Positions 6,676-51,150 are shown, counted from the first letter of the stretch. The stretch is DNA of 64,000 bases from an uncultured Bdellovibrionales bacterium (GCA_964505555.1 CAZDIO010000125.1:3088-67087), one strand, 5' to 3'. Translations and numbers: made by a program. The notes: generated from the letters alone by a model not told the origin.

Positions 6676-7370
6676 ATATCAAACAGAAAATTCTGATTAT
6701 CGATGATGAAGTTCAGATTCGTCGTTTTCTTCGCGCAAGTCTCTCCTCCGGAGATATTGAAATCCTTGAAGCCTCCACGGGAAGAGAGGGGATTTCAATG
6801 ACCGCAACCCATAATCCCGATGTGGTGCTTCTTGATCTCGGGCTTCCTGACATATCGGGAATAGAGGTATTAAAAAATATCCGGGAATGGTCAGAGGTCC
6901 CGCTCATTATTCTTTCTGCAAGAGGAGAAGAAAGCGATAAGATACTGGCGCTAGATTCTGGAGCCGATGACTACCTTACAAAACCATTTTCAGTAGGAGA
7001 ACTTCAAGCTCGAATTCGAGTGGTGTTAAGAAATAAACAAAATCCTCTCGAAGAAGCACCGACAATATTTGAAAAGGATTTTTTAAAAATTGACTTCGGT
7101 GCGCGTCGAGTATTTGTAAATAATCAAGATGTGCACCTCACTCCGACTGAATATAAACTTCTTTCGGTACTTGTCCATCACTGTGGGCGGGTGCTCACCC
7201 ATAAACAACTGCTTAATGAGGTCTGGGGTGCAGCTTACGCCAATCAGACCCATTACCTCCGAGTTTTTATGGGGCAGCTTCGACAAAAAATTGAGCGAGA
7301 TCCTGCCCAACCCCAGTTTTTCATAACGGAACCAGGAGTTGGGTATCGATTTCAGTGCGAATTCGATTAG
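6672..7370 (+). CDS. kdpE: OmpR-family response regulator KdpE
   Basis: Receiver domain (ILIIDDE…VVLLDLGLPD) plus a winged-helix C-terminus (GVGYRF). Overlaps the kdpD stop by 4 nt. Confidence 0.85.
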   Translation: MNIKQKILIIDDEVQIRRFLRASLSSGDIEILEASTGREGISMTATHNPDVVLLDLGLPDISGIEVLKNIREWSEVPLIILSARGEESDKILALDSGADDYLTKPFSVGELQARIRVVLRNKQNPLEEAPTIFEKDFLKIDFGARRVFVNNQDVHLTPTEYKLLSVLVHHCGRVLTHKQLLNEVWGAAYANQTHYLRVFMGQLRQKIERDPAQPQFFITEPGVGYRFQCEFD

Positions 7371-35871: not shown

Positions 35872-36951
35872 ATGAAAACCTTAATTTTGTTTGTAGTTTT
35901 TTTATTGCTGCTTGGATGCGCTCCCCAGCGTCCCCCTCTTCCACCTGGCGTTGTCCCTGAAGCACGACCCGTTACGGCCTCGGAAGAACAATATGGCCAC
36001 CAAGTCTTAAGTGCGTTAAGCGAGCAATATCCTCTCGATTATAATCATCCTCGTTTTGATGCGGTGATTGAAGTTGTTGATAAACTCACCAGCGCTGCCC
36101 AAGCGGATAAAGATCCCTGGCACGTGTACCTTTTTGACGCTCCTCGTATAAAAAATGCTGCGGCAACCAGAGGAAACCACGTTTTTGTTTGGTCAGGCCT
36201 TCTTAACTTTACCAAAGATGACACCGAACTCGCCACGATCCTCGCTCATGAAATTGCCCACGTACTTGCTGGTCATACCGATCCTGATCCCAACGAAGAG
36301 ATTAAAAAACTTCTTATCAACATCGGTGCTGTTGCCGTGGGAGTCGCCGCTTCACGAACAACGGGGAATCCCTATACGGCTCAAAATCTAGGAAATATCG
36401 CTTCCTCTCTCACTTCGGAGGTAGGAAAAGGAATTCTCATCAACCCCTATTCCCGTGAACGTGAACTTGAAGCAGATCAGATCGGTTTATTTATGATGGC
36501 TGATGCAAAATTTGATCCTGAAGTGGCGATTAAGTTTTGGCACCGTGTTCAAAATGATCCTGATTTTGGAGGAACGCTCTCTTTTTTCTCATCTCATCCT
36601 CCTCCTGCAGATAGGCTTTCTAAACTACAATCGCTTCTCCCTCAGGCAAGAGCGCGCTTTCAAGGGCTTACTCCAAAACTCTCCTCTCTCGATCCTCGCA
36701 CTCCTCTTCGAAGTAACACCCGCGATACTTTTAACTGGTCTGGCACCTCAAATAATCTCCGTGAGAATAAATCCTTTCGGGTGGCATCAAATCGGGCCAT
36801 CCTTTATGAAAAACCATCTACGGGAAGTAAAAAGATCGGAGAATTTGCCCCTGGGGCAGAGATCATAGGAAGAGAGGTCAATTCAGATTTTGTGGAGATC
36901 TCCTCACCCGATCACGGCTATCTCCAACGACAACTTCTTGTGCCAAAATAA
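35872..36951 (+). CDS. M48-family zinc metalloprotease (lipoprotein-like) with a C-terminal SH3b-like domain
   Basis: HEIAHVLAGH (HExxH) plus a downstream E. The signal peptide has Cys (LLLGCAP). The C-terminal ~60 aa (EFAPGAEIIGRE…FVEI) look like SH3b. Confidence 0.7.
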   Translation: MKTLILFVVFLLLLGCAPQRPPLPPGVVPEARPVTASEEQYGHQVLSALSEQYPLDYNHPRFDAVIEVVDKLTSAAQADKDPWHVYLFDAPRIKNAAATRGNHVFVWSGLLNFTKDDTELATILAHEIAHVLAGHTDPDPNEEIKKLLINIGAVAVGVAASRTTGNPYTAQNLGNIASSLTSEVGKGILINPYSRERELEADQIGLFMMADAKFDPEVAIKFWHRVQNDPDFGGTLSFFSSHPPPADRLSKLQSLLPQARARFQGLTPKLSSLDPRTPLRSNTRDTFNWSGTSNNLRENKSFRVASNRAILYEKPSTGSKKIGEFAPGAEIIGREVNSDFVEISSPDHGYLQRQLLVPK

Positions 36952-36990
36952 TATCTCCTCTTACACTTGAAAGAATTCTTAATTCAGTAT

Positions 36991-38679
36991 TTATTCTTCT
37001 CGAGGCAGCGTAAAGAAAAAGGTTGATCCCTTCCCCGGCTCTGAGTCCACCCAGATCTGACCACCATATCGCTCCACAATGCGCTGACAGATTGCTAAAC
37101 CAATGCCCGTACTCTCCTGTCGTTGACGATCCACTCGTTTAAATATTGAAAATATCTCTCTCTGAAACTCCTTGTGAATACCGATACCATTATCTTTAAT
37201 AGCAAACATCCAATGCCCCTTCTTACGCTCTGCTGAAATCTGCACCCGGGGAGGAGGTGCCTCACGATATCGAATCGCATTCACTAATAAATTTTGAAGA
37301 AGCTGCACAAGATGCGCTTTATGCATCCTTACTGCAGGAAGAGCTCCAAAACCGATCTCCGCTCCATTTTCCTTAATCAACGCCTGAAGATTCAACATCA
37401 CTTCTTCAAGCGCAGTGGTCGTTTCCACAACAGAAGAATTCTCAATATCTGCCGCTGCACGAGCATAGGTAAGCAGGTCTTTTAACAATTTTGACATTCG
37501 CTTTGTCCCCGCAACAATCTGCTGCAGAAATTCTTTGGCTTCACTGCTTAGCTCCGAATGATACTTTTTGTGAAGAAGTTCAGCATAGATCGTTACCATC
37601 CGTAACGGCTCCTGAAGGTCGTGACTGGCCGCATAGGCAAATTGCTGAAGAGCTGCATTTGATCGTATAAGTTCTGCGCTCTGAATTTCTAGTTTTTCTT
37701 CTGCTTTCTTACGAGCAATGATATCCGCCTCCAAAAACCGAAGCGTACTCTCTTGCTCCTCCTCCGCAAGACGCCTTTGGAAAATACTTGCTGCTAACAC
37801 CATTCCCACAACAGAAAGTGTCGCCACAAACGACTGCAAAAGGAGCAGTGACTCATTCGGATGCACGTTAGAAAACGGCCCCATCACATTGAGAGTTCCA
37901 ATAATAGCTATGCTGGAGATCGACAATGTTACTATCGCAACTTCGCGATGACTAAATCGCACCGCAGCCCAAACAATGATCGGGATACAGAGAAACTCTA
38001 GGGGATATCGCTTGTTTGATGGAAACATCAGTTCACCAAAACAAGCAAAACTAACAAAAAGTAAAACACAAAAAAGCATTATCCCCTCAAGCGCCTGCCA
38101 GCGATTCCAGGGAATTATCTTCGTCCTTATGAATGAGATAATAACGGGACTTACAATTAAAATTCCACTTGCATCTCCAAGCCACCACGTAAGCCAGATT
38201 CCTTGCCAATCACTCCATGCCGCATACCCACCAAGCTCAAGACTCGTTAATCCCACACTTGCACTAATCATCGGAGCGAGTGCCGCCCCAAAAACTACAA
38301 AACGAAAAATGTCACCAGGTCGTTCAAGAAAAGTTTCGCCCCGTGCATAGCGACGAATCAGAAAGACTCCGAGCACTGCTTCAAGGGTATTACCAAGAGC
38401 AATTCCCGTTGAGCTTAAAATTGCAGCGCCACTGATTTCATCAAGTGCAGTAATTTTGGCAATCGTGGTAATATTGACAAGAAATGCTCCGAAAAACACT
38501 GCCCACGAGGAGCGATAGCCATAGAGCAATACCACAGCAAGCGCAATCCCACTCGGAGGCCACACTGGGGAGACGCTGCCATGGCGAAACGCCATAGCTA
38601 AACCAAGTCTTCCCGCTAAAAAATACGTGGCAGTAAGAAGAAAAAAGCGCACAACTTGCTCACGTCCTCGGACGCTCAT
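36991..38679 (-). CDS. Sensor histidine kinase with an N-terminal MASE1 membrane sensor domain
   Basis: About 8 TMs with the MASE1 signature (PVWPPSGIALAVVLL…VFFGAFLVN). Then a coiled coil, HisKA (ASHDLQEPLRM) and HATPase (GTGIGLAICQRIVERYGG). Confidence 0.75.
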   Translation of the reverse strand: MSVRGREQVVRFFLLTATYFLAGRLGLAMAFRHGSVSPVWPPSGIALAVVLLYGYRSSWAVFFGAFLVNITTIAKITALDEISGAAILSSTGIALGNTLEAVLGVFLIRRYARGETFLERPGDIFRFVVFGAALAPMISASVGLTSLELGGYAAWSDWQGIWLTWWLGDASGILIVSPVIISFIRTKIIPWNRWQALEGIMLFCVLLFVSFACFGELMFPSNKRYPLEFLCIPIIVWAAVRFSHREVAIVTLSISSIAIIGTLNVMGPFSNVHPNESLLLLQSFVATLSVVGMVLAASIFQRRLAEEEQESTLRFLEADIIARKKAEEKLEIQSAELIRSNAALQQFAYAASHDLQEPLRMVTIYAELLHKKYHSELSSEAKEFLQQIVAGTKRMSKLLKDLLTYARAAADIENSSVVETTTALEEVMLNLQALIKENGAEIGFGALPAVRMHKAHLVQLLQNLLVNAIRYREAPPPRVQISAERKKGHWMFAIKDNGIGIHKEFQREIFSIFKRVDRQRQESTGIGLAICQRIVERYGGQIWVDSEPGKGSTFFFTLPREE

Positions 38680-39812
38680 GAAGTCAGCGTTTCACCATCT
38701 GTCCGCATTGTTTGGAAAGAATCCTCCTCTAATGCTAACAGTTGAATTAAATCCTTGGCTACCCAAGGCTTTTCTAAGTAGTGATCGACCCTTTCACTAT
38801 CAAAACTTGCTTCCCGACCATTCCTACTTGTTCCAACTACTATAATTCCTGGGCGCGCACTTCGTATCTCGTTGATAAAGTTCCTTGTCTCCTCACCAGC
38901 AACCTCATAATCAATGACGACAATAAGAATGTCAGAATCTCTCGTAAGAAGTTGAATCGCCTCCTCACAGGTCGTTGCCGCATGACAAGCACAACCAATT
39001 CGTCGAAAAGACTCAACGATAATTCGACGTGATAATTGTTGATTGTCAACCACGAGAAGATGAACCAAAGATGGCCATGTATAATCACTGCGAACAGACT
39101 CTCCGACCAATAACCTCACAATCGGTGAGCGTTGATAGAGGGCGTGACGTTTTTCAAGAATAAAAAGAAATCGCGACCTCGATTCCGGCCATTCCCGAAG
39201 TCGCACACTCCAGGTAACAAATGAATCAGAAAGAGGAAGCAGATCACACCAATTCTGTGCAGCATTTTCAATAAGCTCAAGTGCTTTCGGGCCGAAAATT
39301 CTCTGCACAGTTTGAGGAAGGATCTTCATTCCCAAATCAGCACACAACTGCTCCATATGAGGATTCATGTACAATACCCTCCCCTGCTCATCAATTTCAA
39401 TCACACCTACAGGATCTAATAGGTCTAGTGGTCCATCAGCGACAGTCTGTGGAAGAGCCTCCGCCTCTCGAGCAATTCGTTTAATTTGTTCTGCAGAAAA
39501 CGGTTTATCAAGAAATGAATACGCATTTTTTGCATCAGCTTCAAAGCGCAGATCCCGAGACCCGAACCCCGAAATCAATACAACTTGAATGGCTGGATTG
39601 ACAATTCTCATCACATCAACAAGAGTAAGCCCATTGATTGAATCTTTTAACATCCAATCAACGATCAACATCTCCGGCTTTTCACGTAATCCAAGATCAA
39701 TGGCGCTATAGCTGTCAACGGCCGTAAAAACGGTATGGCCTTCTCTGCTCAAAATCAGCTCCAGCTCCTCACGATAATCTTTTTCATCATCAATGATTAG
39801 TATGGTGGCCAT
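38676..39812 (-). CDS. REC-PAS-REC dual-receiver signalling protein
   Basis: N-terminal receiver (ILIIDDE…LIVDWML), a central PAS-like segment, and a C-terminal second receiver (LLVVDNQQ…VVIDYEV). Overlaps the HK start by 4 nt. Confidence 0.65.
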   Translation of the reverse strand: MATILIIDDEKDYREELELILSREGHTVFTAVDSYSAIDLGLREKPEMLIVDWMLKDSINGLTLVDVMRIVNPAIQVVLISGFGSRDLRFEADAKNAYSFLDKPFSAEQIKRIAREAEALPQTVADGPLDLLDPVGVIEIDEQGRVLYMNPHMEQLCADLGMKILPQTVQRIFGPKALELIENAAQNWCDLLPLSDSFVTWSVRLREWPESRSRFLFILEKRHALYQRSPIVRLLVGESVRSDYTWPSLVHLLVVDNQQLSRRIIVESFRRIGCACHAATTCEEAIQLLTRDSDILIVVIDYEVAGEETRNFINEIRSARPGIIVVGTSRNGREASFDSERVDHYLEKPWVAKDLIQLLALEEDSFQTMRTDGETLTS

Positions 39813-41104
39813 GTTCTTGTATCTCCATCGCTTTTTTGCATCCCGAGCTTATCTCGATTTGCCATCTCATCTTTAGGTTGCATAAGCGGAAGATGAATCA
39901 CCACTTTTGTACCTACTCCCAGGGTACTTTCCACCTCTATCGTACCACCGTGATCAATGATAATTCCATGTGCAATACTCAACCCTAAGCCAGTTCCACC
40001 GTTTCGTTGCCTCGTTGTGTAAAAAGGATCAAAGATATGCTTTAATGCCTCTTCAGCTATTCCAGCTCCATTATCTTCAACCGTAATCATCGCTTGTTTA
40101 TTATTTTCTTGAATATCGACAACGACTCGACAACCCCCCACTCCAGACTCTAAAGCATTTCGAAAGAGATTGACAAATACCTGCTCCATTTCCAGGGGAT
40201 TAAGAACAACTTGAAGCGGTTTGATGGAGGAGTTGATCATGAAAGAGCCTTTTGATCGCTCATCAGAGTCATAGAGGAGTTGCAGAGCACTTTCAATGAC
40301 CGAAGTTACATTGTGTGGCCATTTTTCTGTGCTCTGCTGCCGTGAAAATTGGAGAATTCCTTTAACGATCAAAGCACACCGTTTGGCATTATTTGTCACT
40401 TTCTGACAGGTTCTAGAAAGTAACTCCGAAAGCTCCTCTTTGGATTTGCAATCGTTCTTCATTTCCTGTGCATTTTGTGCAATGAGCAAAATAGCGCCAA
40501 CAGGATTGTTAATCTCATGAGCAATACCTGCAGAGAGCGCACCAATTGATGCCATTCTTTCAGACTGTCGAAGCTTTTCTTGTGATGCGGCTAGCTCCTG
40601 GGTTCGCTCCACAACAAGCTTCTCAAGGTGATCTCGGTATCGAGTGATCTCATTTTTTGCATGTTTACGCTGAATGGCATAACGAATTGACCGCAAAAGC
40701 AGTGAACTACTCATCTCTCCCTTTACTAGATAATCCTGAGCGCCTTCATTGATAGTAGTAACCCCAAGCGCCTCATCTTCAAGACCTGTGAGCACAATAA
40801 TTGGCACCTCAGGAAGATGACGAAAGAGTATTCTAAATGTTTCTAAGTGCTTGCTATCAGGAAGAGTAAGATCAAGAAGCGCCACATCAACTTTGTGCTG
40901 TAAAGCATGGTCGAGTGCCGTTGACAATCTTTCACAATGCGTTAGGTCGAAGGCAGATCCGATCCGAAGAGTCGCTTCCGGGTCAGAAAGCATCTCGCGG
41001 ATATATAAACTATCTGCTGGATTATCCTCTATGAGTAAAACGTTAATTACATCCATCACGGGCGTTCCGTATAAAACGAATGGTACCTTGGAGATCAACG
41101 TCAA
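39797..41104 (-). CDS. Hybrid response-regulator/histidine kinase (REC-HisKA-HATPase)
   Basis: Receiver (VLLIEDNPAD…ALLDLTLPD), HisKA (IAHEINNPV) and HATPase (GTGLGLSIAHGIIIDHGG). Confidence 0.75.
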   Translation of the reverse strand: MTLISKVPFVLYGTPVMDVINVLLIEDNPADSLYIREMLSDPEATLRIGSAFDLTHCERLSTALDHALQHKVDVALLDLTLPDSKHLETFRILFRHLPEVPIIVLTGLEDEALGVTTINEGAQDYLVKGEMSSSLLLRSIRYAIQRKHAKNEITRYRDHLEKLVVERTQELAASQEKLRQSERMASIGALSAGIAHEINNPVGAILLIAQNAQEMKNDCKSKEELSELLSRTCQKVTNNAKRCALIVKGILQFSRQQSTEKWPHNVTSVIESALQLLYDSDERSKGSFMINSSIKPLQVVLNPLEMEQVFVNLFRNALESGVGGCRVVVDIQENNKQAMITVEDNGAGIAEEALKHIFDPFYTTRQRNGGTGLGLSIAHGIIIDHGGTIEVESTLGVGTKVVIHLPLMQPKDEMANRDKLGMQKSDGDTRTWPPY

Positions 41105-41152
41105 AAGACAGTCATAGTTCCTTATCTTCAGAAGGAAGGCAAGATTCCCTTA

Positions 41153-42247
41153 TCAAGGAACCTCTTCGGTTGCCATTATCTCCAATAAATCATCCATTTG
41201 CCAAGGTTTCGGTAAAAACTTGTTTACCCCAATTGCCTTAAACTGCTCTTTATGATCTCCAGCGCTCGTGCCAATAATTTTTACTTGAGGACGAAGTCCC
41301 AGAACTTTGGCAACGAATTCCTGAGGATCGGAATTGCCCATTTCAAAATCAAGCACCACCTGTTCGATTTCAGAATCATGAGCAAAAAGCCTAATCGCTT
41401 CTTCATGAGTTTCTGCTGTATGACACACACACTTGAGTTCACGAAGAACGTCAACAATTAAGCGCCGAGCAAGCTCAGAGTCATCGACTATTAAAAAATG
41501 TCCTTTCAGAGGGAGCACTCGAGGCTCAGGAATTCCCAGTAATCTACATACCGTTGGGTTGTGCCGTAATGAAATATCTTTTTCATAGAGAATAATATAG
41601 GTTTTTTTTCCTAATTTTCCCACCTCTCGCGAACGCACTAACCACCGAACTCCATCTTGTTCAATTGGAGTCAACGAGACCCACCGTTCTGACGTGGCTT
41701 TTAAACTTTTCTGCTCTTCAGCAGAGAATAACTCATCGATACCCTTTACAAACATTCCGGGAATAGTTCTTCCCATCATCTCTTCAGCAGTGGCATTAGC
41801 AAAAAGAATCTTCCCCCGTCGATCCGTTTCTAAAAATCCCACCAATGATGCATGACTCCACCAAGTTCTCTTTTTTGAGGCTCGCTCCACAGCAAGACGA
41901 ATTTCTTTGAGAGGAAATGGTTTTTCGAGAAAATCAAAAACGGCTGCCTGCGTAGCCTCATTACGGAGATCCGACGAAACATATCCGGAAATAAGAATCG
42001 TCTGAACAGAGGGACAAACAAGTTTTAGTGCTTCAGCTACATCAAGACCATGGATATGATCGCGAAGCATCCAATCTGTCACCAGCACATCGGGCCGAAC
42101 AAGGCTTCCGATCTCAACTGCCTCTCTTCCGCTCGTTGCGAGCTTTACCTCGTGACCATCGCGCGCGAGACCAAATCCTATCTCTTCACAGTAGTCCTGA
42201 ATGTCTTCAACAACTAAAACAACTGACATAACGCTCCATAATAGCAC
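41153..42247 (-). CDS. REC-PAS-REC dual-receiver signalling protein (paralog of 38676..39812)
   Basis: Same architecture (VVLVVEDIQD…LVTDWML; FLIVDDSELARR…VVLDFEM) and collinear similarity to the 378-aa protein. Confidence 0.65.
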   Translation of the reverse strand: MLLWSVMSVVLVVEDIQDYCEEIGFGLARDGHEVKLATSGREAVEIGSLVRPDVLVTDWMLRDHIHGLDVAEALKLVCPSVQTILISGYVSSDLRNEATQAAVFDFLEKPFPLKEIRLAVERASKKRTWWSHASLVGFLETDRRGKILFANATAEEMMGRTIPGMFVKGIDELFSAEEQKSLKATSERWVSLTPIEQDGVRWLVRSREVGKLGKKTYIILYEKDISLRHNPTVCRLLGIPEPRVLPLKGHFLIVDDSELARRLIVDVLRELKCVCHTAETHEEAIRLFAHDSEIEQVVLDFEMGNSDPQEFVAKVLGLRPQVKIIGTSAGDHKEQFKAIGVNKFLPKPWQMDDLLEIMATEEVP

Positions 42248-42503
42248 GGTTCAACCACCCAATGTGCGAATATTTTTTTATAGCGTTTGCCAAAATTTAA
42301 ATTATTAAGGTTCCCTCTCGTAATAACGCCCCACCTTACACATCATGACTTTTGCCAATCAGTATAAGCGAGAAGATTTCTCCCTAATTACAATTACTAT
42401 GCTGTTCTTAACGTATGAGACTTGTTTAAAAAAATTTTATTCTGGGGTGAGCCAAATAAAACCGGAGGGGATCCTTGCCGAAATAATCAAAAGAGAGGGG
42501 TTT

Positions 42504-43166
42504 TTAATACCTTCCCTTGCCATGGCGAACGATCTCTCCCTCATTCATATAGATAACATCTTCCGCGATGTTCGAGGCATGATCTGCAATACGTTCTAGG
42601 TTTTTAGAGATCGCAAGAACAAGAAGCATCTGGTCAATTTTTGAAGTATCCCGCTTCATCTCTTCCTTTACTAAGGTATACACCTTGCGATTAATCTCAT
42701 CTATCTCCGTATCTGAAGCAAGAACGGCAGTTGCCTGGGTACTATCCATCTCCACAAGGCATTGCAGGCTATTTTCCAGGGTTCTCTTCGTTTTCTCCAC
42801 CATCTCATTAATTAAAGGGATATTAAGCGGGGTACCAAGAAAGGTGAGATTCTTAGCCCGCTGTGCAATGTTTACTGCCAAATCACCAATTCGCTCAAGA
42901 TCACTATTCATTTTTAACACCGCAACAATAAATCGAAGATCAATTGCTACTGGCTGATGAAGCGCCAAAAGCTTTAGACATTCCTCTTCTAAATCTACTT
43001 CATACGTATCAATCTCGCGATCTCCCTCGATCACCTCCCCCGCAAGTTTATCGTTAAGAACAATAATTGCAGCGGTTGCTTTTTCAACTCGTTGTTGAAC
43101 AAGGATTCCCAATTCGATAATTCTTTTCTTCAGATTGAGGACTTCATGTTGTAAATGTCTTGTCAT
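42504..43166 (-). CDS. phoU: Phosphate signalling complex protein PhoU
   Basis: 220 aa with the two PhoU repeats (E.DLERIGDLAVNIA / E.NLERIADHASNIAE). Confidence 0.9.
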   Translation of the reverse strand: MTRHLQHEVLNLKKRIIELGILVQQRVEKATAAIIVLNDKLAGEVIEGDREIDTYEVDLEEECLKLLALHQPVAIDLRFIVAVLKMNSDLERIGDLAVNIAQRAKNLTFLGTPLNIPLINEMVEKTKRTLENSLQCLVEMDSTQATAVLASDTEIDEINRKVYTLVKEEMKRDTSKIDQMLLVLAISKNLERIADHASNIAEDVIYMNEGEIVRHGKGRY

Positions 43167-43176
43167 ACACCTCTTT

Positions 43177-43986
43177 TTAACCGAATCGGCCCGTCACATA
43201 ATCTTCTGTTTCTTGTTTCTGTGGATTTGTAAAGATTGTCTTTGTTTTATCAAACTCTACGAGCCTCCCTTCGTAAAAAAAGGCGGTAAAGTCAGAAACT
43301 CGTGCGGCTTGTTGCATATTGTGGGTAACGATCACAATGGAGTACTCTGTGCGAAGCTCATTGATCAGATCTTCAATCTTTGCTGTTGAGCGGGGATCGA
43401 GCGCAGAGGCGGGCTCATCCATGAGTAAGATCTCCGGATTTACCGCAAGGGCACGAGCGATGCACAAGCGTTGTTGTTGTCCACCAGAGAGACTAAAGGC
43501 ACTTGACCTAAGTCTGTCTTTTACCTCATTCCAAAGATCTGCTCGCTTGAGACTCCCTTCGACAATCTCCTCAAGCTGCTTGCGATCATTTACCTGGTGT
43601 AACCTCGGTCCATAAGCAACGTTATCAAAAATTGATTTTGGAAAAGGGTTACTCCTTTGAAACACCATCCCCACTTTTTTTCGCAAAAATACAAGGTCAA
43701 CTTTCTCCCGATAGATATCAATCTCTCCAATCTGCACACTCCCCTCAAGGCGCGTATTGGGAATGAGATCGTTCATCCGATTCAGTGTTCGAAGAAATGT
43801 AGACTTCCCGCATCCGGAAGGCCCAATGAGCGCCGTTACCGCATTTGAGGCGATCTCTACATTCACATCGAAGAGGGCTTGCTTTTGTCCATAGAAAAAA
43901 TTCAACTCCTTGACTCTGACGCTCACTCGTCTCTGCTCTGTAATTGGTTTCTCCATCGGAACCTCTAGAACGTTTAGTAATCTCAT
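43177..43986 (-). CDS. pstB: Phosphate ABC transporter ATP-binding protein PstB
   Basis: Walker [10 protein letters not shown], the signature [15 protein letters not shown], and Walker [12 protein letters not shown]. Confidence 0.9.
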
Positions 43987-43992
43987 AGATCG

Positions 43993-44847
43993 TTAAAAAT
44001 CATATCTTTTTTCAAACTTTGCACGAAGGAGTACCGCAATACAATTCATTGTCAACAAAAGTGAAAGAAGTACAACAATAGCCGCAGCAGCATTTGCATG
44101 AAACGCTTCCTGTGGACGAGAGGTCCAGTTAAACGCTTGAATCGGAAGAGCCGTAAAGGAAGAAAAAAGCCCATCTGGAATAAAGGCCACATAGGTCAGG
44201 GCTCCAATAGTAATGAGTGGCGCCGTTTCACCGATCGCACGAGAAAACGCTAGAATGCACCCGGTAAAAATCCCTGGAAGTGCCGCAGGAACCACCTGAT
44301 CACGCACAACCTCCCACTTACTTGCACCAAGAGCGTAGGCAGCCTCTCGAAAGGTATAGGGGACTCGACGAATGGCTTCACGCGCAGCGATAATGATCAC
44401 CGGCATTATTAATAAAGAGAGCGTAAATGCTCCCGTAAGCAGACTCCGTTCCAAGCGAAACGTCCTTACAAATAGCTGTAAACCAAGGATTCCATAAATG
44501 ATTGAGGGAACAGCAGCAAGATTTGCAATATTAAGTTCAATAAAACGGGTCAATCGGTTCTGAGGTGCATATTCCTCTAAATACACGGCCGCTCCTATTC
44601 CAAGAGGAGCACTAATCACCGCGGTAAGGAGCATCAAATAGACTGAACCAGTAAGTGCCGAAGCAATACCAGCTTTCTCCGGGTGCCGAGAGGGAAAAGC
44701 AGTGAAAAACGATCCTTGCAGACGCGGAAGTGCGTCATAGAGAATATCCACTACCAAAGTAGCAAGCATTAACACTGAAAGTGAAAGTGCAAACACTCCT
44801 GCGAATCGAAATAAGTGTTCAGCCTGTTTTCTTGCTAAGAATCTCAT
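43993..44847 (-). CDS. pstA: Phosphate ABC transporter permease PstA
   Basis: 284 aa, 6 TMs, with the [12 protein letters not shown] permease motif. Confidence 0.9.
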   Translation of the reverse strand: MRFLARKQAEHLFRFAGVFALSLSVLMLATLVVDILYDALPRLQGSFFTAFPSRHPEKAGIASALTGSVYLMLLTAVISAPLGIGAAVYLEEYAPQNRLTRFIELNIANLAAVPSIIYGILGLQLFVRTFRLERSLLTGAFTLSLLIMPVIIIAAREAIRRVPYTFREAAYALGASKWEVVRDQVVPAALPGIFTGCILAFSRAIGETAPLITIGALTYVAFIPDGLFSSFTALPIQAFNWTSRPQEAFHANAAAAIVVLLSLLLTMNCIAVLLRAKFEKRYDF

Positions 44848-44855
44848 CCGTTTCT

Positions 44856-45812
44856 TTATGAAAATCTGCGCTTAAAGCGACTTCTCATGTACAAACTAAA
44901 AAGATTTAATAGTAAGGTAATAACAAACAATGCTCCTCCTACGGCAAATATTGTTTTGTATTCAAGCGTACCGTGCGGTGTGTCACCAAGAGAAATTTGG
45001 ACAATATATGCTGTCATCGTCTCGACCCCTTGAAGGGGATTGAAAGAAAGTCGTGGTTGTTGGCCTGCAGCGATGGCGACGATCATGGTTTCTCCAACCG
45101 CTCGTGACATCGCAAGAACAAAAGCTGCCATAATCCCCCCAAACGAGGACGGCACAAGAACACCAAAGATCATCTGCAACTTAGAAGCTCCGAGTGCATA
45201 TGCCCCTTCTTTTAGATTTCTTGGCACTGAATAAAAAGCATCTTCACTGAGAGAGGCCACCATCGGAAGAATCATAATCCCCATTACAATTCCTGGACTT
45301 AATGCATTAAACCCTGAAAGATTTGGAATGAATCTCTGCAAGAGAGGGGTAACAAAAAGTAGAGCAAAATATCCAAAAACTACGGTAGGGATGCCCGCGA
45401 GCACCTCTAGAATCGGCTTTAATATTCCACGCACCCGCGCACTTGCAAACTCACTCAGGTAGATGGCACTCATCAGACCCATTGGCAACGCCACAGTAAG
45501 TGCAATAATTGATGTCAAAAATGTCCCCGATACTAATGGCAGGATTCCAAAATGTTTATCTGCAAAAAGAGGGGTCCACTGGGTATCAAACAGGAAATCG
45601 GTAATCGGCACATCAACAAAAAACGAGCCCGCCTCAATCACAAGAACAAGAACAATACCGAGCGTGGTAAACACGGAAATACACGCACAGAAAAAAAGCA
45701 TTAGCCGAATCGATTCTTCCTTAATCCTTTTTAACGAAGCAACACGCAGTCGGCGCACTTCGGTAAAGACAGGAGTGTCAATGCTTGTTTCTGTCATGGA
45801 AGGATCCATCAC
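44856..45812 (-). CDS. pstC: Phosphate ABC transporter permease PstC
   Basis: 318 aa with the [12 protein letters not shown] motif, upstream of pstA. Confidence 0.9.
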
Positions 45813-45845
45813 TTACTGAGGGAGATAGATAGGAGCGAGTTTTTT

Positions 45846-45934
45846 AATGAACACAGGGTTTCACAGAGATCCACAGAGTCAGAATATTCGATTTTATTCT
45901 TTACTCTGTGAAACTCCGTGAACTCTGTGTTCAA
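45846..45934. repeat. Palindromic dispersed repeat, copy C (REP/MITE-like, CACAGAG family)
   Basis: gaacacagggtttcacagag…ctctgtgaaactccgtgaactctgtgttc: imperfect long inverted arms around a loop gaatattcgattttattc. Intergenic between pstC and pstS. Confidence 0.7.
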
Positions 45935-45959
45935 AAAATCTTATCTTACTGCCGTTTGA

Positions 45960-46979
45960 CTACTGCTCTTTTTTTAACAACTCAGCAAGGGTCATTCCCA
46001 CATGGTTTCCACCCTGAGTAAAAACGGTGCCAATAATGGACTTATTAAACCTTCCCTCAGCGAGATTATAAACTTCGGAGGGAAGCTGCACGTAGCCTAC
46101 TTCATTTGATAATGTTGATACATTCTTCAAATAGAAGGAAACAAACTCCTTCACAGCAGGACGATCAAGTGCTTTCTTACTCACATAGATAAACAGTGGG
46201 CGAGATAATGGCTGATACAATCCCTTAACCACGTTTTCTTTTGTGGGTGATTGTGGACCTTTGCCATTAGCTTCTTTTTCATCATCAATTGCCAATGCCT
46301 TTAATTTGCCTTTATTCTCTTCATAGTATGCCATTCCAAAAAATCCGAGAGCATTTGGATCACTCGCAATTCCCTGAACAAGCACATTGTCATCCTCACT
46401 ACTGGTGAAGTCACCTCTACTAGAATGCTCTTTTCCCACCACAGCTTCTGTAAAGTAGTCGTACGTCCCGGAATCAACCCCTGCTCCAAAAAGAACAAGT
46501 GGTTTATTTGGCCAATCCGCTCGAATTTGATTCCACGTAGTAATCTTTCCCTGAGCTTCAGGTTCCCAGATCTTTTTTAGCTCGGCTACCGTGATTGAAT
46601 TCGCCCAGGTGTTGTCCTTACTGACGATTACCGAGAGCGCATCATAGGCAACAGGAAGCTCCACAAACTCTACCCCGTTATCCTTACAGAGTTGAAGTTC
46701 CGTTTCTTTTATTGGTCGTGAGGCATCAGAAATATCGGTCTCTCCTGCACAGAACTTTTTAAATCCACCCCCAGTTCCTGAGATACCCACGGTAATTTTG
46801 ATCTCTTTGTTTTTTGAACCAAACTCCTCTGCAACTGCTTCAGTAATTGGATACACAGTACTCGAGCCATCAACTCGGATCATATCTGTCCCCATGGTGG
46901 TGGGCGCAGCAGATACCGATTGTGAAAGGAGAATGCCCGTAAGGAATGCTACATACTTCAGATTGCCATCTTTTTTCAT
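45960..46979 (-). CDS. pstS: Phosphate-binding periplasmic protein PstS
   Basis: PBP fold ([16 protein letters not shown]…[11 protein letters not shown]). The likely start is [10 protein letters not shown]…, giving a signal peptide. The ORF-track start at 47045 is an upstream extension. Confidence 0.85.
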
Positions 46980-47126
46980 ATTCCCATGCCTTTTTCTTTC
47001 AACTGTCCTAAATAAATAATAACAATACGCTATTACTGCGCGCACAGTGCAGTAGTTTTGTTAGGGTATTATTAGGAGAATGCTAGAAGTTTTTCAAGTT
47101 CCGGAGAGAATGGCAAAAAACTGAGC

Positions 47127-48188
47127 TTATTTGATCTCCGGCAGGGGCAAATGAATTGAAAACGTACTGCCTTGTCCCATTTCACTCTTCACATCAACGT
47201 TTCCGTTATGAATACTTGCTACGTGCTTAACGATGGCTAAACCAAGACCAGTACCTCCCATCTTTCGACTCCGGGCCTTATCAACTCGATAGAATCTCTC
47301 AAAAATTCGTGCGAGGTGCTCATCAGAAATCCCCGGACCCCGATCTTGAACTTCAATGATAATCTCTTCTTTAGTGCGAATTCCTTTAATGGTAACGGTA
47401 GTGTTGTTCCCACTATATTTCACTGCATTATCAATAAGATTAATAACCGCTTGCTCAAGGAGTGATCGATCAACCACCACGTTCAATAGTGGGTCACATT
47501 CTACCCGCAACGTAATTGACTTTGCTGCAGCTCCACCCCGACAAACTTCAGAAGCGGCATTTAAAATATCACGCACCTTCTCTGTTTCAAGAACAAGAAA
47601 CTCCTGTTCAGATTCACTCTCTAACCGCGCCAGTGTCAATAAGTCTTCGACGATCGCATGTAAGCGATCTGCTTGCACCGACATGATCCGCAAAAACCGC
47701 CGAGCATCTTCTTTATTATCCATCGCTCCATCAAGGAGGGTTTCCACAAATCCCTTAATCGAAGTAATTGGGGTCTTAAGCTCGTGAGATACGTTTGCTA
47801 CAAAATCCCTTCTTACCTTCTCAAGAAGTTTGAGGCGCGTTACATCATTAACAATAATCAACATACCAAATAATTCTCCTTCCTGACCGCGAAGCGCGGT
47901 GCTCCGAAGGGTAAAATACTCCTCATCTCCACTGCGAAGTGTTATCTCTGCTCCAGACTCCACAGCAAGCGCCGAATCATTGGAAAAAAACCGCTTTAAT
48001 CCTTCATCTCTCACCACCTGATCTATTCGCTTTCCTAAAATGGCCTCATCATCAACATCAAGAAACTTTGAGGCAGCTTTATTCGTATGAACCACAAGAT
48101 ATTCTGCATCCAGAATTAATACCCCCTCGGTCATACTCGAAAGCATGGTCTCAAGTGAGAGTTCTTTTGCGCGGGGATCAAGTGTCAT
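47127..48188 (-). CDS. phoR: Phosphate regulon sensor kinase PhoR (soluble PAS-HK, no TM segment)
   Basis: PAS (EGVLILDAEYLVVHTNKAA), HisKA (VSHELKTPITSIKGF) and HATPase (GTGLGLAIVKHVASIHNG). No hydrophobic segments. Confidence 0.85.
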   Translation of the reverse strand: MTLDPRAKELSLETMLSSMTEGVLILDAEYLVVHTNKAASKFLDVDDEAILGKRIDQVVRDEGLKRFFSNDSALAVESGAEITLRSGDEEYFTLRSTALRGQEGELFGMLIIVNDVTRLKLLEKVRRDFVANVSHELKTPITSIKGFVETLLDGAMDNKEDARRFLRIMSVQADRLHAIVEDLLTLARLESESEQEFLVLETEKVRDILNAASEVCRGGAAAKSITLRVECDPLLNVVVDRSLLEQAVINLIDNAVKYSGNNTTVTIKGIRTKEEIIIEVQDRGPGISDEHLARIFERFYRVDKARSRKMGGTGLGLAIVKHVASIHNGNVDVKSEMGQGSTFSIHLPLPEIK

Positions 48189-48871
48189 TCTTTAAAGCGA
48201 TATCCTACACCACGAACGGTTTCAATATATTTTCCAACCGGTCCAAGCTTCTTTCTCAATCCCACAATCTGCACATCCACCGCACGATCGGTAACCGGAT
48301 AATCTTTTCCCTTAATAGCATCAACAATCTGATACCTTGTAAAAACCCATCCCGGATGCCTTGCAAGAAAATGAAGAATTTGAAACTCCGTTAAGGTTAA
48401 AGGGATCGGCTCCTCCTGAATTAATACCTCATGCCTTCCGGGATGAATCGTAATCTCATGCACCCGAAGCACCGCCTCACTATCAAGAGGCTCTGCTTGC
48501 CGACGCCGAATCACCGCTTTTACCCGAGCAATAAGGATTCTGGGACTAAAGGGTTTTGTAATATAGTCATCCGCTCCAAGTTCAAGTCCCGTAACAATAT
48601 CACTCTCTTCACCTTTGGCAGAAACCATCATGATCGGAATGTCCCGAGTCTCTTCGTCGTTTTTTAAAATACGACACACATCGAGACCATCGATCCCGGG
48701 TAGCATTAAATCAAGAACTATCAGATCCGGAATCTGCACCCGCGCTAAACGCAACCCCTCCTCTCCAGAGGTAACCCCAGAGACCCCAAACTGTTCCTTT
48801 GTAAGATTATAACGAACAAGTTCGAGGATATCCTCCTCATCTTCAATTACAAGAATGTTCTGTTGAGCCAT
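48185..48871 (-). CDS. phoB: Phosphate regulon response regulator PhoB (OmpR family)
   Basis: Receiver (ILVIEDEED…LIVLDLMLPG) and winged helix (GVGYRF). Overlaps phoR by 4 nt. Confidence 0.85.
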   Translation of the reverse strand: MAQQNILVIEDEEDILELVRYNLTKEQFGVSGVTSGEEGLRLARVQIPDLIVLDLMLPGIDGLDVCRILKNDEETRDIPIMMVSAKGEESDIVTGLELGADDYITKPFSPRILIARVKAVIRRRQAEPLDSEAVLRVHEITIHPGRHEVLIQEEPIPLTLTEFQILHFLARHPGWVFTRYQIVDAIKGKDYPVTDRAVDVQIVGLRKKLGPVGKYIETVRGVGYRFKE

Positions 48872-48975
48872 GAGGGTATCTGCGCAAATGAATGTTAGCG
48901 GCGTGTTTGGTCTCTGTTAAAAGTTCATAACACACCCCAGGCCACGGCCATAAGTTAAGGATCTGAAGAAAGATT

Positions 48976-49050
48976 TATAGGACCACAGAGTCACAGAGAA
49001 GATCAATAAAATCTTTTTTCTCTGTGCCTCTGCGTCTCTGTGGTTCTATA
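48976..49050. repeat. Palindromic dispersed repeat, copy A (short variant of copy B)
   Basis: tataggaccacagagtcacagagaagatcaataaaatcttttttctctgtgcctctgcgtctctgtggttctata. Terminal IR TATAGnACCACAGAG/CTCTGTGGTTCTATA. It shares the central agagaagatcaataaaatc with copy B. Confidence 0.75.
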
Positions 49051-49084
49051 AAAAATCCTTCCCTTAATGCCCGTAACCCCAGGG

Positions 49085-50527
49085 CTACTGTATAATATTA
49101 GCTCGTTTTAGTTGCAAACGCTTACGCAACCATACTTCAAGAGCCCGTGTGGCAAGCACATCATCTCGGTTATATTGAAGAATCTCCTCTTGGATTGCTT
49201 TTTGTTCCGTGAGAATCTCAGACTCAAGATATTTTAAATATCGAACAACAGACCACTGGGAACCAGATCCTTCATTTTCCCAAGAAAAGTTCACCAGACG
49301 CTTATCTTTGCAGATCTGCTTAAGACCATATCCTGTGGTTGGAAGAACAAGAGAGCGTTTTACAATTGAAAGAAGATCCACCAAGGCATCTTCTTCCTTC
49401 AAAAGAAACTTCACGATGGGATGACTCTCCATCGTGTAGCGCTGTGCATAAGCCCGAAGTTGCGCCTTTTCAAATGGCGAAAAGTGAATAAGACGCGGCT
49501 TTTCATAGTGCTTCTGGTAGTGCTCCACTGCCTGAAGAAAAGAAAGCCAACCTTGATAATCACCCTCTGGACCATCTTCACTCCATACATACTGATATTC
49601 TTTTCGGCTATACGGAGGAGGAAGCAATCCCCAGAGATAGACCTGCCCACCGTCTACTGAGGCAAAGGGGTTAAGTTCAACATCAAAGTGAATCCAGGTT
49701 CCCTCCGGCAAATCGGGAGACTCCAATTCGATCACCTCTCCTTGGAGAAAGCTTCGTGCTTGATGAATCACTCGTTGTCTCTTCTCTTGTGTCGTAAAGT
49801 ACGGCAGATCTGCCAGGTCCTCAGGAGTAGCTTCAGCAAGTTGTGAAATATTTTTAATTCCCCTTCCTTCTAGAGCACCTACATTTCGAACATCGATGCC
49901 ATAGATCAGAGTCAGCTCCCCTTGAGTATGAAATTCAGGAATACAGATCTCACTATAACCACACCCTTTACATTTGGAATGACTAAAATGTGTTTCTGGA
50001 GGGGTTTTTTGTGCAAGAATTTTTTGAAAATTTTCAAGAAAATTATCTCTTATCCCATTTGCTTCATCCCCAACCTCTTCAATGACTCCGGAACGAAGAT
50101 AACATCTTGCCGGGAGTTTACTTGAAAAGAGTAGCCGATAGAGCGCAAGTTGTAATCGAATCTCTGGATGACCAGAGAGTGAATCCGCGAGCTTTGCGTC
50201 GGCAACTATATACTCCCCAGTTTCATTACGAATCAGAAAATCAGGTTTCCCTATTAATTTTCGTTGCTCATCAATAATCACCGGCTGATAAATAACGGGA
50301 ACACCTTGCTTCATTAACTCTTGAGTGTGCGCTGGAGAGAGTGCGAGCGTAATCTCCGAGAATGAGTTCTTAATCCGTTCTTCATGTTCCATTCCCAACT
50401 TTGAAAGTAATTGCTCAAAGGGATCTTTTTCAACAAACAAATTGTCTGGGGGAAATTGATCGTACCAAAACTTGCGAACACACTCTCGCCAAGTCTTTGC
50501 AGTACCTACAGGAAGAAGAAAGCCCAT
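49085..50527 (-). CDS. TM0106-family RecB-like nuclease (N-terminal PD-(D/E)xK Cas4-like domain with a Cys cluster, plus a C-terminal RNase-H-like domain)
   Basis: GKPDFLI…ADAKLA (PD-D/ExK), CKGCGYSEIC (Fe-S/Zn Cys cluster). The C-terminal half has YGID…DV motifs of the predicted RNase H-like exonuclease fold. Confidence 0.6.
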   Translation of the reverse strand: MGFLLPVGTAKTWRECVRKFWYDQFPPDNLFVEKDPFEQLLSKLGMEHEERIKNSFSEITLALSPAHTQELMKQGVPVIYQPVIIDEQRKLIGKPDFLIRNETGEYIVADAKLADSLSGHPEIRLQLALYRLLFSSKLPARCYLRSGVIEEVGDEANGIRDNFLENFQKILAQKTPPETHFSHSKCKGCGYSEICIPEFHTQGELTLIYGIDVRNVGALEGRGIKNISQLAEATPEDLADLPYFTTQEKRQRVIHQARSFLQGEVIELESPDLPEGTWIHFDVELNPFASVDGGQVYLWGLLPPPYSRKEYQYVWSEDGPEGDYQGWLSFLQAVEHYQKHYEKPRLIHFSPFEKAQLRAYAQRYTMESHPIVKFLLKEEDALVDLLSIVKRSLVLPTTGYGLKQICKDKRLVNFSWENEGSGSQWSVVRYLKYLESEILTEQKAIQEEILQYNRDDVLATRALEVWLRKRLQLKRANIIQ

Positions 50528-51054: not shown

Positions 51055-51150
51055 TAACGCAGAGCACACGGAGCACACAGAGAGGAGAATTTATCCCTTT
51101 TCCCCTCTGTGTGCTCCGTGTGCTCTGCGTCTTCCTCTGTGTTAAAAACC
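51055..51150. repeat. Palindromic dispersed repeat, copy D
   Basis: Perfect 25-bp IR gcagagcacacggagcacacagagg / cctctgtgtgctccgtgtgctctgc around loop agaatttatcccttttcc. An outer IR ttaacGCAGAG/CTCTGTGttaa matches the termini of copy C. Confidence 0.75.

Follow-up and report, generated by a model that had tools for sequence, protein, structure and literature searches.

The locus examined here raises the question of whether four signaling genes that directly follow a phosphate uptake operon belong to the response to phosphate or form a signaling system of their own. The genes lie in a stretch of 64,000 nucleotides (nt) from an uncultured Bdellovibrionales bacterium (GCA_964505555.1, CAZDIO010000125.1:3088-67087), hereafter the window, from whose first letter all positions are counted. 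They encode two proteins in which a PAS domain is flanked by two receivers (REC-PAS-REC, abbreviated RPR; RPR_A and RPR_B), a histidine kinase fused to a receiver (REC-HK), and a histidine kinase with a membrane MASE1 sensor (MASE1-HK). An initial annotation regarded this cassette as coupled to the Pho regulon and suggested a multistep phosphorelay or a phosphate sink. With modest confidence we favor another interpretation, in which the cassette is a self-contained four-component two-component module, with a MASE1 kinase acting on a receiver-gated kinase that in turn acts on REC-PAS-REC adaptors. In this interpretation the cassette does not belong to the Pho regulon as an appendage; a comparison with about 90 related loci indicates that its position beside the pst genes is not conserved.

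Gene Content of the Cassette

All of the cassette genes and all of the Pho/Pst genes are on the minus strand. Their order along transcription is phoB-phoR-pstSCAB-phoU, then a noncoding gap, then RPR_A, REC-HK, RPR_B, and MASE1-HK. With domains assigned from Pfam (DHp, dimerization plus histidine phosphotransfer domain; CA, domain for catalysis and binding of ATP), the gap and cassette comprise the following:

42230..42503, minus strand: intergenic gap of 274 nt, from the phoU stop to the RPR_A start
41153..42229, minus strand: RPR_A, REC-PAS-REC, 358 amino acids (aa), no output domain (contig record P0001); REC1 at ~41870-42223, PAS at ~41534-41848, REC2 at ~41165-41503
39797..41056, minus strand: REC-HK, REC-DHp-CA, 419 aa (contig record P0121); REC at ~40682-41047, DHp with H180 at ~40331-40564, CA at ~39884-40198
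38676..39812, minus strand: RPR_B, the second REC-PAS-REC protein, 378 aa (a 378-aa gene call is on record)
36991..38679, minus strand: MASE1-HK, membrane MASE1 sensor with HisKA (H353) and HATPase_c, 562 aa

The initial annotation had placed four open reading frames (ORFs) here on the same strand as phoU, and these were confirmed, as were the lengths of 378 and 562 aa. The other two lengths, given as 364 and 435 aa, are likely 358 and 419 aa. The listed starts of ORF 41153-42247 (RPR_A) and ORF 39797-41104 (REC-HK) are probably too far upstream; the likely starts are the ATG at 42229, which is preceded by GGAG, and the ATG at 41056. These starts are preferred because the contig record contains products with exactly the resulting lengths (P0001 and P0121). 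With RPR_A starting at 42229, the gap after phoU is 274 nt rather than the 256 bp first reported. RPR_A and REC-HK are ~96 nt apart. The coordinates give an overlap of 16 nt between REC-HK and RPR_B and of 4 nt between RPR_B and MASE1-HK, in agreement with the earlier proposal that the last three genes overlap and are translationally coupled.

The domain architectures proposed for the four proteins were also upheld by Pfam. The RPR_A ORF contains two Response_reg domains (E 3.6e-32) and a PAS_8 domain (26.3 bits; cutoff, 21.8), and ORF 38676-39812 (RPR_B) contains two Response_reg domains and a subthreshold PAS_8 match (19.5 bits). ORF 36991-38679 (MASE1-HK) matches MASE1 (E 2.4e-45, 155.4 bits; cutoff, 29.8), HisKA (45.9 bits), and HATPase_c (97.4 bits). 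In the REC-HK ORF, Response_reg (E 8e-13), HisKA, and HATPase_c were found and nothing else; the receiver is joined directly to DHp-CA, and neither a transmembrane domain nor another sensor is present. REC-HK carries its receiver as input and is thus a Rec-controlled kinase. Pfam detected no DNA-binding (helix-turn-helix) or other output domain in the four cassette proteins, as had been claimed, and no histidine phosphotransfer (Hpt) domain.

The cassette has five receivers rather than the four previously counted, with the following residues at the catalytic positions:

RPR_A REC1: E8, D9, D52, S81, K103
RPR_A REC2: D249, D250, D294, T321, K341
REC-HK REC: E10, D11, D62, T90, K112
RPR_B REC1: D8, D9, D52, S81, K103
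RPR_B REC2: D256, N257, D301, T328, K348

The phosphoacceptor Asp, the Thr/Ser, and the Lys are present in all five, so these are not pseudo-receivers. Only RPR_B REC2 deviates, with Asp-Asn in place of the acidic pair. In 13 REC-HK homologues E10, D11, D62, and K112 are invariant and T90 is nearly so. The H, N, G1, and G2 boxes are retained in both kinases, and their F boxes were identified by visual reading of the translations. The REC-HK boxes are AHEINNP (with H180), NLFRNA, DNGAGI, and GTGLGL, with FDPFYTT as the F box read by eye. The two kinases differ in H-box type, AGIAHEINNP in REC-HK versus ASHDLQEPLR in MASE1-HK.

A Discrete Family of REC-PAS-REC Regulators

The RPR family was defined from an alignment (A1) of both window proteins with 46 homologues, all aligned over their full length. 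Its members have a REC1 with invariant D9, D52, and K103 and a DWML motif, a central PAS fold, and a C-terminal REC2. RPR_A and RPR_B, which are 32% identical in this alignment, both show these features. Among the 48 sequences, REC1 is fully canonical: position 8 is acidic in 47, and D9, D52, and K103 are found in every one. The acceptor Asp of REC2 is present in 44/48 and its Lys in 45/48, and the second acidic residue is kept in just 28/48.

About 85 full-length homologues of RPR_A were found among 5.8 billion clustered proteins, and they bear generic names only, such as "response regulator". When one genome from each of 185,579 species was scanned, 162 stretches encoding an RPR relative were found, and the best 80 of these were fetched with 10-kb flanks (L003-L082). 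All 80 are in metagenome-assembled genomes (MAGs), labeled as Bdellovibrionota, Planctomycetota/Phycisphaerae, Acidobacteriota, Myxococcota, "Deltaproteobacteria", or Spirochaetaceae. Overall, some 150 species-level genomes contain the family, and they belong to Bdellovibrionota, Planctomycetota, Acidobacteriota, Myxococcota, and Spirochaetota.

The central domain was confirmed as a genuine PAS fold by structural modeling. An AlphaFold2 (AF2) model of RPR_A, built from the 48-sequence alignment, is compact (predicted local distance difference test [pLDDT] of 92; predicted template modeling score [pTM] of 0.87), with receivers at residues 3-120 and 243-355 and a beta2-alpha-beta3 domain at ~128-232 between them. 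The central domain modeled alone had a pLDDT of 90, and all of its Foldseek matches in the PDB at E <= 0.001 are PAS, LOV, or heme-PAS domains (template modeling score [TM] of 0.45-0.58), including the WalK/YycG PAS, EcDOS, and FixL. For the whole model the top PDB match was PleD (E 2e-13), and its TM of 0.31 implies that receiver domains alone superpose. The Foldseek search of the PDB found no structural homologue of the three-domain unit, only single receiver superpositions (TM ~0.3).

A phmmer search with the central domain alone against 1.84 billion representatives returned 41 proteins. Nearly all are 350-420 aa long with the domain at residues ~125-240, and a few are multi-PAS proteins that match through its N-terminal half. 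This PAS variant is, judged from its sequence matches, essentially confined to the REC-PAS-REC architecture. No NCBIfam model reaches its cutoff on RPR_A, and a literature search found no paper with the term "REC-PAS-REC". The RPR family is discrete, and it and its dedicated kinase, described below, appear to be undescribed.

Many of the RPR homologues of ~410-420 aa (P0033, P0040, P0044, P0048, P0052, and P0059) have a conserved C-terminal tail of ~55 aa with a CxxC...CxxC pattern. This zinc-ribbon-like tail, at A1 columns ~440-490, is absent from the window proteins and had no significant match in Pfam. It may be an output or targeting element.

A Conserved Kinase-RPR Gene Pair

Enough upstream sequence for a test was available at 71 loci, and at 41 of them, from five phyla, combined tblastn and ORF analysis found a same-strand kinase gene upstream of the RPR gene. 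In 40 of these 41, the kinase gene ends no more than 25 nt to either side of the point where the RPR gene begins. The DHp-CA cores of the upstream kinases are 33-51% identical to that of the window REC-HK, mostly 40-51%. All 40 cognate kinases that were examined have HisKA and HATPase_c, with a consensus H-box of AGIAHEINNP. Their sensors are varied (PAS in 29, GAF in 7, REC in 5, and MASE1, PHY, and Phosphonate-bd in 1 each), and the family thus swaps sensors freely among PAS, GAF, phytochrome, MASE1, and receiver domains. No third conserved gene that might be an output was found around the pair. Because the RPR protein is the sole regulator beside its kinase in 41 loci, it can be regarded as that kinase's output. 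These comparisons indicate that the conserved functional unit is an AHEINNP-type kinase followed by an RPR protein.

In the window, RPR_B fits this rule, its start being overlapped by the REC-HK stop. RPR_A departs from it, with a kinase gene ~96 nt downstream and phoU upstream. In the remaining loci, which are mostly from Myxococcota, "Deltaproteobacteria", and Spirochaetaceae (L057-L078), the RPR gene is an orphan with no adjacent kinase. Its neighborhood is conserved and seems to consist of housekeeping genes; by eye, they resemble those for ferrochelatase, uroporphyrinogen decarboxylase, octanoyltransferase, an E2 acyltransferase, and a NuoB-like protein.

Two other features of the RPR loci were observed. 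In the closest relatives of RPR_A (48-50%; L001 6803-9154 from a Bdellovibrionota MAG, and L084 7087-9459 and L083 5387-5596 from metagenome contigs), a gene for a small protein with an ethylene-receptor-like membrane domain (ETR1_N) is just upstream of, and nearly contiguous with, the gene for the PAS-PAS kinase that comes before RPR. For P0145, the Pfam list computed beforehand includes PF25487, and in that protein ETR1_N and the kinase may be one polypeptide. In some Bdellovibrionota-type loci (L074 4841-12361, L083 6532-9837, and L023 559-2829), a single kinase is followed by two or three RPR paralogues in tandem, and the regulator has thus been duplicated repeatedly in this lineage.

Recurrence of the Four Parts Outside the Window

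The closest PDB sequence to REC-HK is LvrB of Leptospira (8vc9; E 1.1e-30, residues 51-395 versus 45-380), in an alignment that spans the receiver, the linker, and the CA domain. The NCBIfam LvrB model (NF047466) aligns with REC-HK over its full length at 135.7 bits, far under the cutoff of 500, which indicates that REC-HK is not an LvrB orthologue but a member of the same architectural class. Three other places have a gene for a kinase of the REC-HK type with an RPR gene directly after it: L086/L087 (kinase, 49% identical), L088 (48%), and L172 (51%). When metagenome contigs were scanned with the REC-HK alignment, only distant kinases (<=40%) were found, none with a MASE1 domain and at most one with a weak RPR-like match nearby (L145; 24%, 72 bits).

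The metagenome contig L088 has all four parts, as two divergent kinase-regulator pairs. In one, a MASE1-PAS kinase precedes an RPR gene nearer to RPR_A (42%); its MASE1 is 39% and its kinase core 35% identical to the window protein, and its H-box is ASHDLGAPLR. In the other, a REC-HK (48%) precedes an RPR gene nearer to RPR_B (38%). The recurrence of the four parts in a different order on an unrelated contig is the best evidence that they are one functional unit.

MASE1-HK belongs to a large family of ~540-aa MASE1 kinases, with more than 100 homologues that have MASE1 and kinase domains and are 36-51% identical over the aligned part, many of them at 40-46%. Bacteriophytochrome kinases, which usually signal to single receiver domains, are the nearest matches to its core in the PDB after an unnamed histidine kinase (8f71). 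The closest homologue (46%) is from the organism of L086, on a separate contig (L169), where it is followed by a stand-alone receiver of 137 aa. We infer that L086 and L169 are from one genome, since they are from the same sample and have near-identical coverage. At L086 12315-14873, two genes are convergent with the REC-HK/RPR pair, one for a 267-aa REC-Hpt protein and the other for a 530-aa hybrid kinase (REC-HisKA-HATPase-REC), so that in this organism the module adjoins true phosphorelay parts.

Relationship to the Phosphate Genes

The genes upstream of the cassette, as assigned with Pfam and NCBIfam, are as follows:

48185-48871, minus strand: phoB-like regulator of the OmpR family
47127-48188, minus strand: phoR-like kinase, PAS-HisKA-HATPase
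45960-47045, minus strand: pstS
44856-45812, minus strand: pstC
43993-44847, minus strand: pstA
43177-43986, minus strand: pstB
42504-43166, minus strand: phoU (189.9 bits; cutoff, 130)

The claim that the locus already has its own PhoR and PhoB upstream, beside pstSCAB-phoU, is supported by these assignments. The PhoB and PhoR models of NCBIfam were the best or near-best matches and were just below their equivalog cutoffs; for the PhoR-like kinase the top models were PnpS (360 bits; cutoff, 400) and phoR_proteo (323.7 bits; cutoff, 334.2). This kinase is 353 aa long with PAS starting at residue 12, and from its sequence it seems to lack the membrane-spanning N-terminus of Escherichia coli PhoR.

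Coupling of the cassette to the Pho regulon, physical or functional, is unsupported by the comparative and sequence evidence. In tblastn searches within 10 kb of RPR relatives, phoU and pstS/C/A were found at none of the 80 genome loci (L003-L082) and at none of five metagenome loci (L083-L086 and L088), and PstB gave generic ABC ATPase matches only. No E. coli-type Pho box (<=3 mismatches) was found near pst or the cassette, including the gap, a consensus that may not be that of the host. A TTAACA/CAAACA/CTAACA repeat with 11-bp spacing is upstream of phoB only and not upstream of the cassette. Both motif searches were dropped as evidence either way, since the host Pho box may differ.

A separate promoter in the gap had been named as a sign against coupling, and no promoter-like or terminator-like site was found in the 274 nt at the scan thresholds. 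The one hairpin in the gap is A/U-rich with a U-run and is weak (-5.9 kcal/mol; z -0.96), no better than in shuffled sequences, and the gap as a whole folds no more stably than its shuffles (z +0.24). No Rfam family was found in 36000-50000, gap included. One promoter-like match was found elsewhere, ~120 nt upstream of the REC-HK start:

41175..41204, minus strand: TTGGCA-18-GATAAT, 10/12, inside the 3' end of RPR_A

It is possible that this is a putative internal promoter driving the three overlapping genes. The region has 12 promoter-like sites versus 10.2 +/- 3.7 in shuffles, and because this count is in the range of the shuffles the match is regarded as a lead only.

Exact-sequence look-ups of the window MASE1-HK and RPR_A gave no match. 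The PhoU look-up returned two Logan contigs only, both 100% identical to the window; these represent the same organism and provide no independent synteny. REP-like palindromes (CACAGAG...CTCTGTG) are at three intergenic sites, 45843-45938, 48965-49061, and 51076-51111; the first separates pstS from pstC, and the others are upstream of phoB and of an HhH-GPD/NUDIX gene, respectively. The pattern has 5 matches versus 0 in shuffles, and the gap before the cassette contains none of them. In a single case (L085 2194-3267), a gene for a CHAD-domain protein, a type associated with polyphosphate granules, is convergent with the gene for the RPR_A homologue of highest identity (53%).

Proposed Mechanism and Alternative Explanations

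In the favored interpretation, the usual PAS or GAF sensor of an RPR-type kinase would have been exchanged for an N-terminal receiver in the window genome. MASE1-HK would sense a membrane-associated signal, autophosphorylate on H353, and pass the phosphoryl group to D62 of REC-HK, for which it is the most likely donor. The designation of MASE1-HK as donor is based on translational coupling, co-occurrence in L088, and analogy with Leptospira, in which LvrA phosphorylates the LvrB receiver, releasing the catalytic domains, and LvrB then phosphorylates LvrC, a regulator without a DNA-binding domain (PMC5863495, PMC13269768). Phosphorylation of D62 would, as in the LvrB analogy, switch on the autokinase activity of REC-HK. 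Active REC-HK would then autophosphorylate on H180 and phosphorylate D52 in REC1 of RPR_B and RPR_A, as suggested by the conserved kinase/RPR operon. The phosphorylated RPR proteins probably act as adaptors through protein-protein contacts with an unlinked target. REC2, and possibly the PAS domain, may supply a second input, possibly from MASE1-HK directly, as the gene order in L088 suggests; MASE1-HK may likewise feed RPR_A directly.

Several points weigh against this interpretation. Each step of phosphotransfer, the direction in which phosphate would flow, and the output itself are all inferred. In L088 the gene for the MASE1 kinase is directly upstream of the RPR_A-like gene, so that a pairing of MASE1-HK with RPR_A fits too, and that arrangement fits two parallel pairs equally well. 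In the organism of L086 and L169, MASE1-HK and REC-HK are on different contigs, and the stand-alone receiver there weakly resembles the REC-HK receiver (27% over 129 aa, E 0.005). The idea that the REC-HK receiver is of the phytochrome-regulator type, which would have favored its pairing with the phytochrome-like core of MASE1-HK, was not supported, its PDB matches being the receiver of a "dual sensor histidine kinase" and KdpE. The gap yielded no strong terminator, so that read-through from phoU is possible, and the nearest available relatives are only ~50% identical, so that a lineage-specific link to pst may exist.

Of the other explanations, the one to be taken most seriously, although we regard it as rather unlikely, is that the cassette comprises two independent adjacent pairs, MASE1-HK with RPR_A and REC-HK with RPR_B, with acetyl phosphate or an unlinked kinase as the donor for the receiver of REC-HK and no phosphate passing between the two kinases. 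L088 has exactly these pairings as separate divergent operons, the MASE1-HK of L086/L169 has a stand-alone receiver of its own on another contig, and activation by acetyl phosphate has been proposed for LvrB (PMC5863495). However, the start of MASE1-HK in the window overlaps the stop of RPR_B, whereas two genes separate RPR_A from MASE1-HK, and the co-occurrence of all four parts in two unrelated genomes, the window and L088, points to a functional unit. Furthermore, the DHp of MASE1-HK is of the SHDLQEPLR type, versus the AHEINNP type in all 40 RPR-cognate kinases, and REC1 of an RPR protein is thus unlikely to be its preferred substrate. There is little to recommend the view that one or both RPR proteins are nonsignaling decoys, either pseudo-receivers or phosphate sinks that drain the kinases. 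The Asp-Asn pair in REC2 of RPR_B, the loss of the second acidic residue of REC2 in many family members, and the RPR_B-like protein of L088, in which this pair is His-His and the Lys-Pro-Trp motif reads His-Pro-Ser, would fit a decoy, but the canonical REC1 and the retention of Asp and Lys in most REC2 domains would not. A compact three-domain build with a dedicated kinase over five phyla also exceeds what a sink needs, and a sink is unlikely for the family as a whole, the RPR protein being the only regulator beside its kinase at the 41 paired loci.

It is improbable that the cassette extends the Pho regulon, cotranscribed with pstSCAB-phoU and serving as a relay or sink that modulates PhoR/PhoB. 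Its position on the same strand immediately downstream of phoU, a gap without a strong intrinsic terminator or consensus promoter through which transcripts could continue, regulators without output domains, and the single cases of the CHAD neighbor and of a Phosphonate-bd sensor in 1 of 40 cognate kinases would all suit such a role. However, phoU and pstS/C/A were found within 10 kb at none of the 80 genome and five metagenome loci, the motif searches found nothing resembling a Pho box upstream of RPR_A, a canonical phoB-phoR pair is already there, and 274 nt is long for a junction within an operon. That the RPR protein is the sole partner of its kinase argues for an output rather than a sink. 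The multistep phosphorelay envisaged in the initial annotation, if of the classical His-Asp-His-Asp type, lacks its Hpt protein: in addition to the Pfam result for the cassette, a crude tblastn search of the window with the REC-Hpt protein of L086, which has low sensitivity, gave no match to the Hpt region. In a further variant that we also consider improbable, RPR proteins would be a new class of dual-input adaptors, with REC1 phosphorylated by the AHEINNP kinase, REC2 by a second kinase (MASE1-HK in the window), and the PAS domain coupling or gating the two, and the cassette would be transcribed behind pst-phoU by read-through. If this were true, an RPR protein would compute a logical combination of two signals before binding its unlinked target, and the module would be a second, phosphate-starvation-induced signaling layer in the window lineage.

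Comparison with Known Systems

The self-contained module that we favor would work like the Lvr, RedCDEF, and EspA/EspC systems, but the cassette belongs to none of them. REC-HK shares the REC-DHp-CA build of LvrB, with no other sensor, and as in the Lvr system there is a second kinase in the same gene cluster and a downstream regulator without a DNA-binding domain. However, the candidate upstream kinase in the window is a membrane MASE1 protein rather than a cytoplasmic PAS hybrid kinase, the regulators are REC-PAS-REC rather than REC-anti-sigma (Bergerat fold) proteins, and the phosphotransfer proposed for the window proteins is predicted.

RedCDEF of Myxococcus xanthus similarly consists of four co-encoded two-component proteins without a DNA-binding output, among them a membrane kinase, a second kinase-type protein, and RedD, a dual-receiver regulator in a nonlinear phosphate flow (PMC2755868). 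In contrast to RedE, which cannot autophosphorylate, both window kinases keep their catalytic motifs (F box by eye). RedF is a single receiver, whereas Pfam found no single-domain receiver gene in the cassette, where four receivers are paired in two dual-receiver proteins and the fifth is fused to a kinase. RedD is not known to have a PAS domain between its receivers. RedCDEF is an analogue only, likened to the cassette by architecture, and no orthology is claimed.

Another two-kinase system is that of EspA and EspC in M. xanthus, hybrid kinases that have receivers at the C terminus as well as additional domains and that act together via interprotein phosphorylation. In MASE1-HK, the MASE1 region gives a match to the EspC model (E 9.7e-81, 272 bits), and the REC-HK core matches both the EspC and EspA models (NCBIfam NF052574 and NF052573 are the EspA/EspC models). 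However, the scores are far below the equivalog cutoffs of 1200 and 1400, and EspA/EspC have no RPR-type partners. FrzZ is a dual-receiver regulator without an output domain. FrzZ and the REC-REC stem of PleD (PDB 1w25, 2v0n) resemble RPR proteins in having two receivers per polypeptide and in acting by contacts or dimerization, but neither has a PAS domain between the receivers, and PleD has a GGDEF output.

Multikinase and output-less two-component networks are already familiar to specialists. The window provides a compact natural case in which a receiver-controlled RPR kinase is co-encoded with a candidate upstream membrane kinase, and the cassette should be convenient for studying Rec-controlled kinase cascades and the targets of output-less dual-receiver regulators. 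Adjacency to pst-phoU should not serve to annotate these genes as phosphate signaling genes.

Other Features of the Window

Horizontal acquisition of the cassette was considered and rejected; its G+C content (0.43-0.455) is within the range of the window (0.41-0.47). In the flanking genes covered by the scans, no sign of a mobile element was noticed. The gene beyond the 3' end of the cassette is convergent with it:

35872-36951, plus strand: M48 peptidase gene

Directly upstream of phoB, at 49085-50527 on the minus strand, is a gene for a 480-aa protein with a PD-(D/E)XK/Cas4-like nuclease domain and RNase_H_2. At 3979-7370 on the plus strand, a gene for an 898-aa kinase is followed by an overlapping gene for an OmpR-family regulator that is 34% identical to the window PhoB (tblastn). 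Their sizes suggest that this pair is a candidate KdpD/KdpE.

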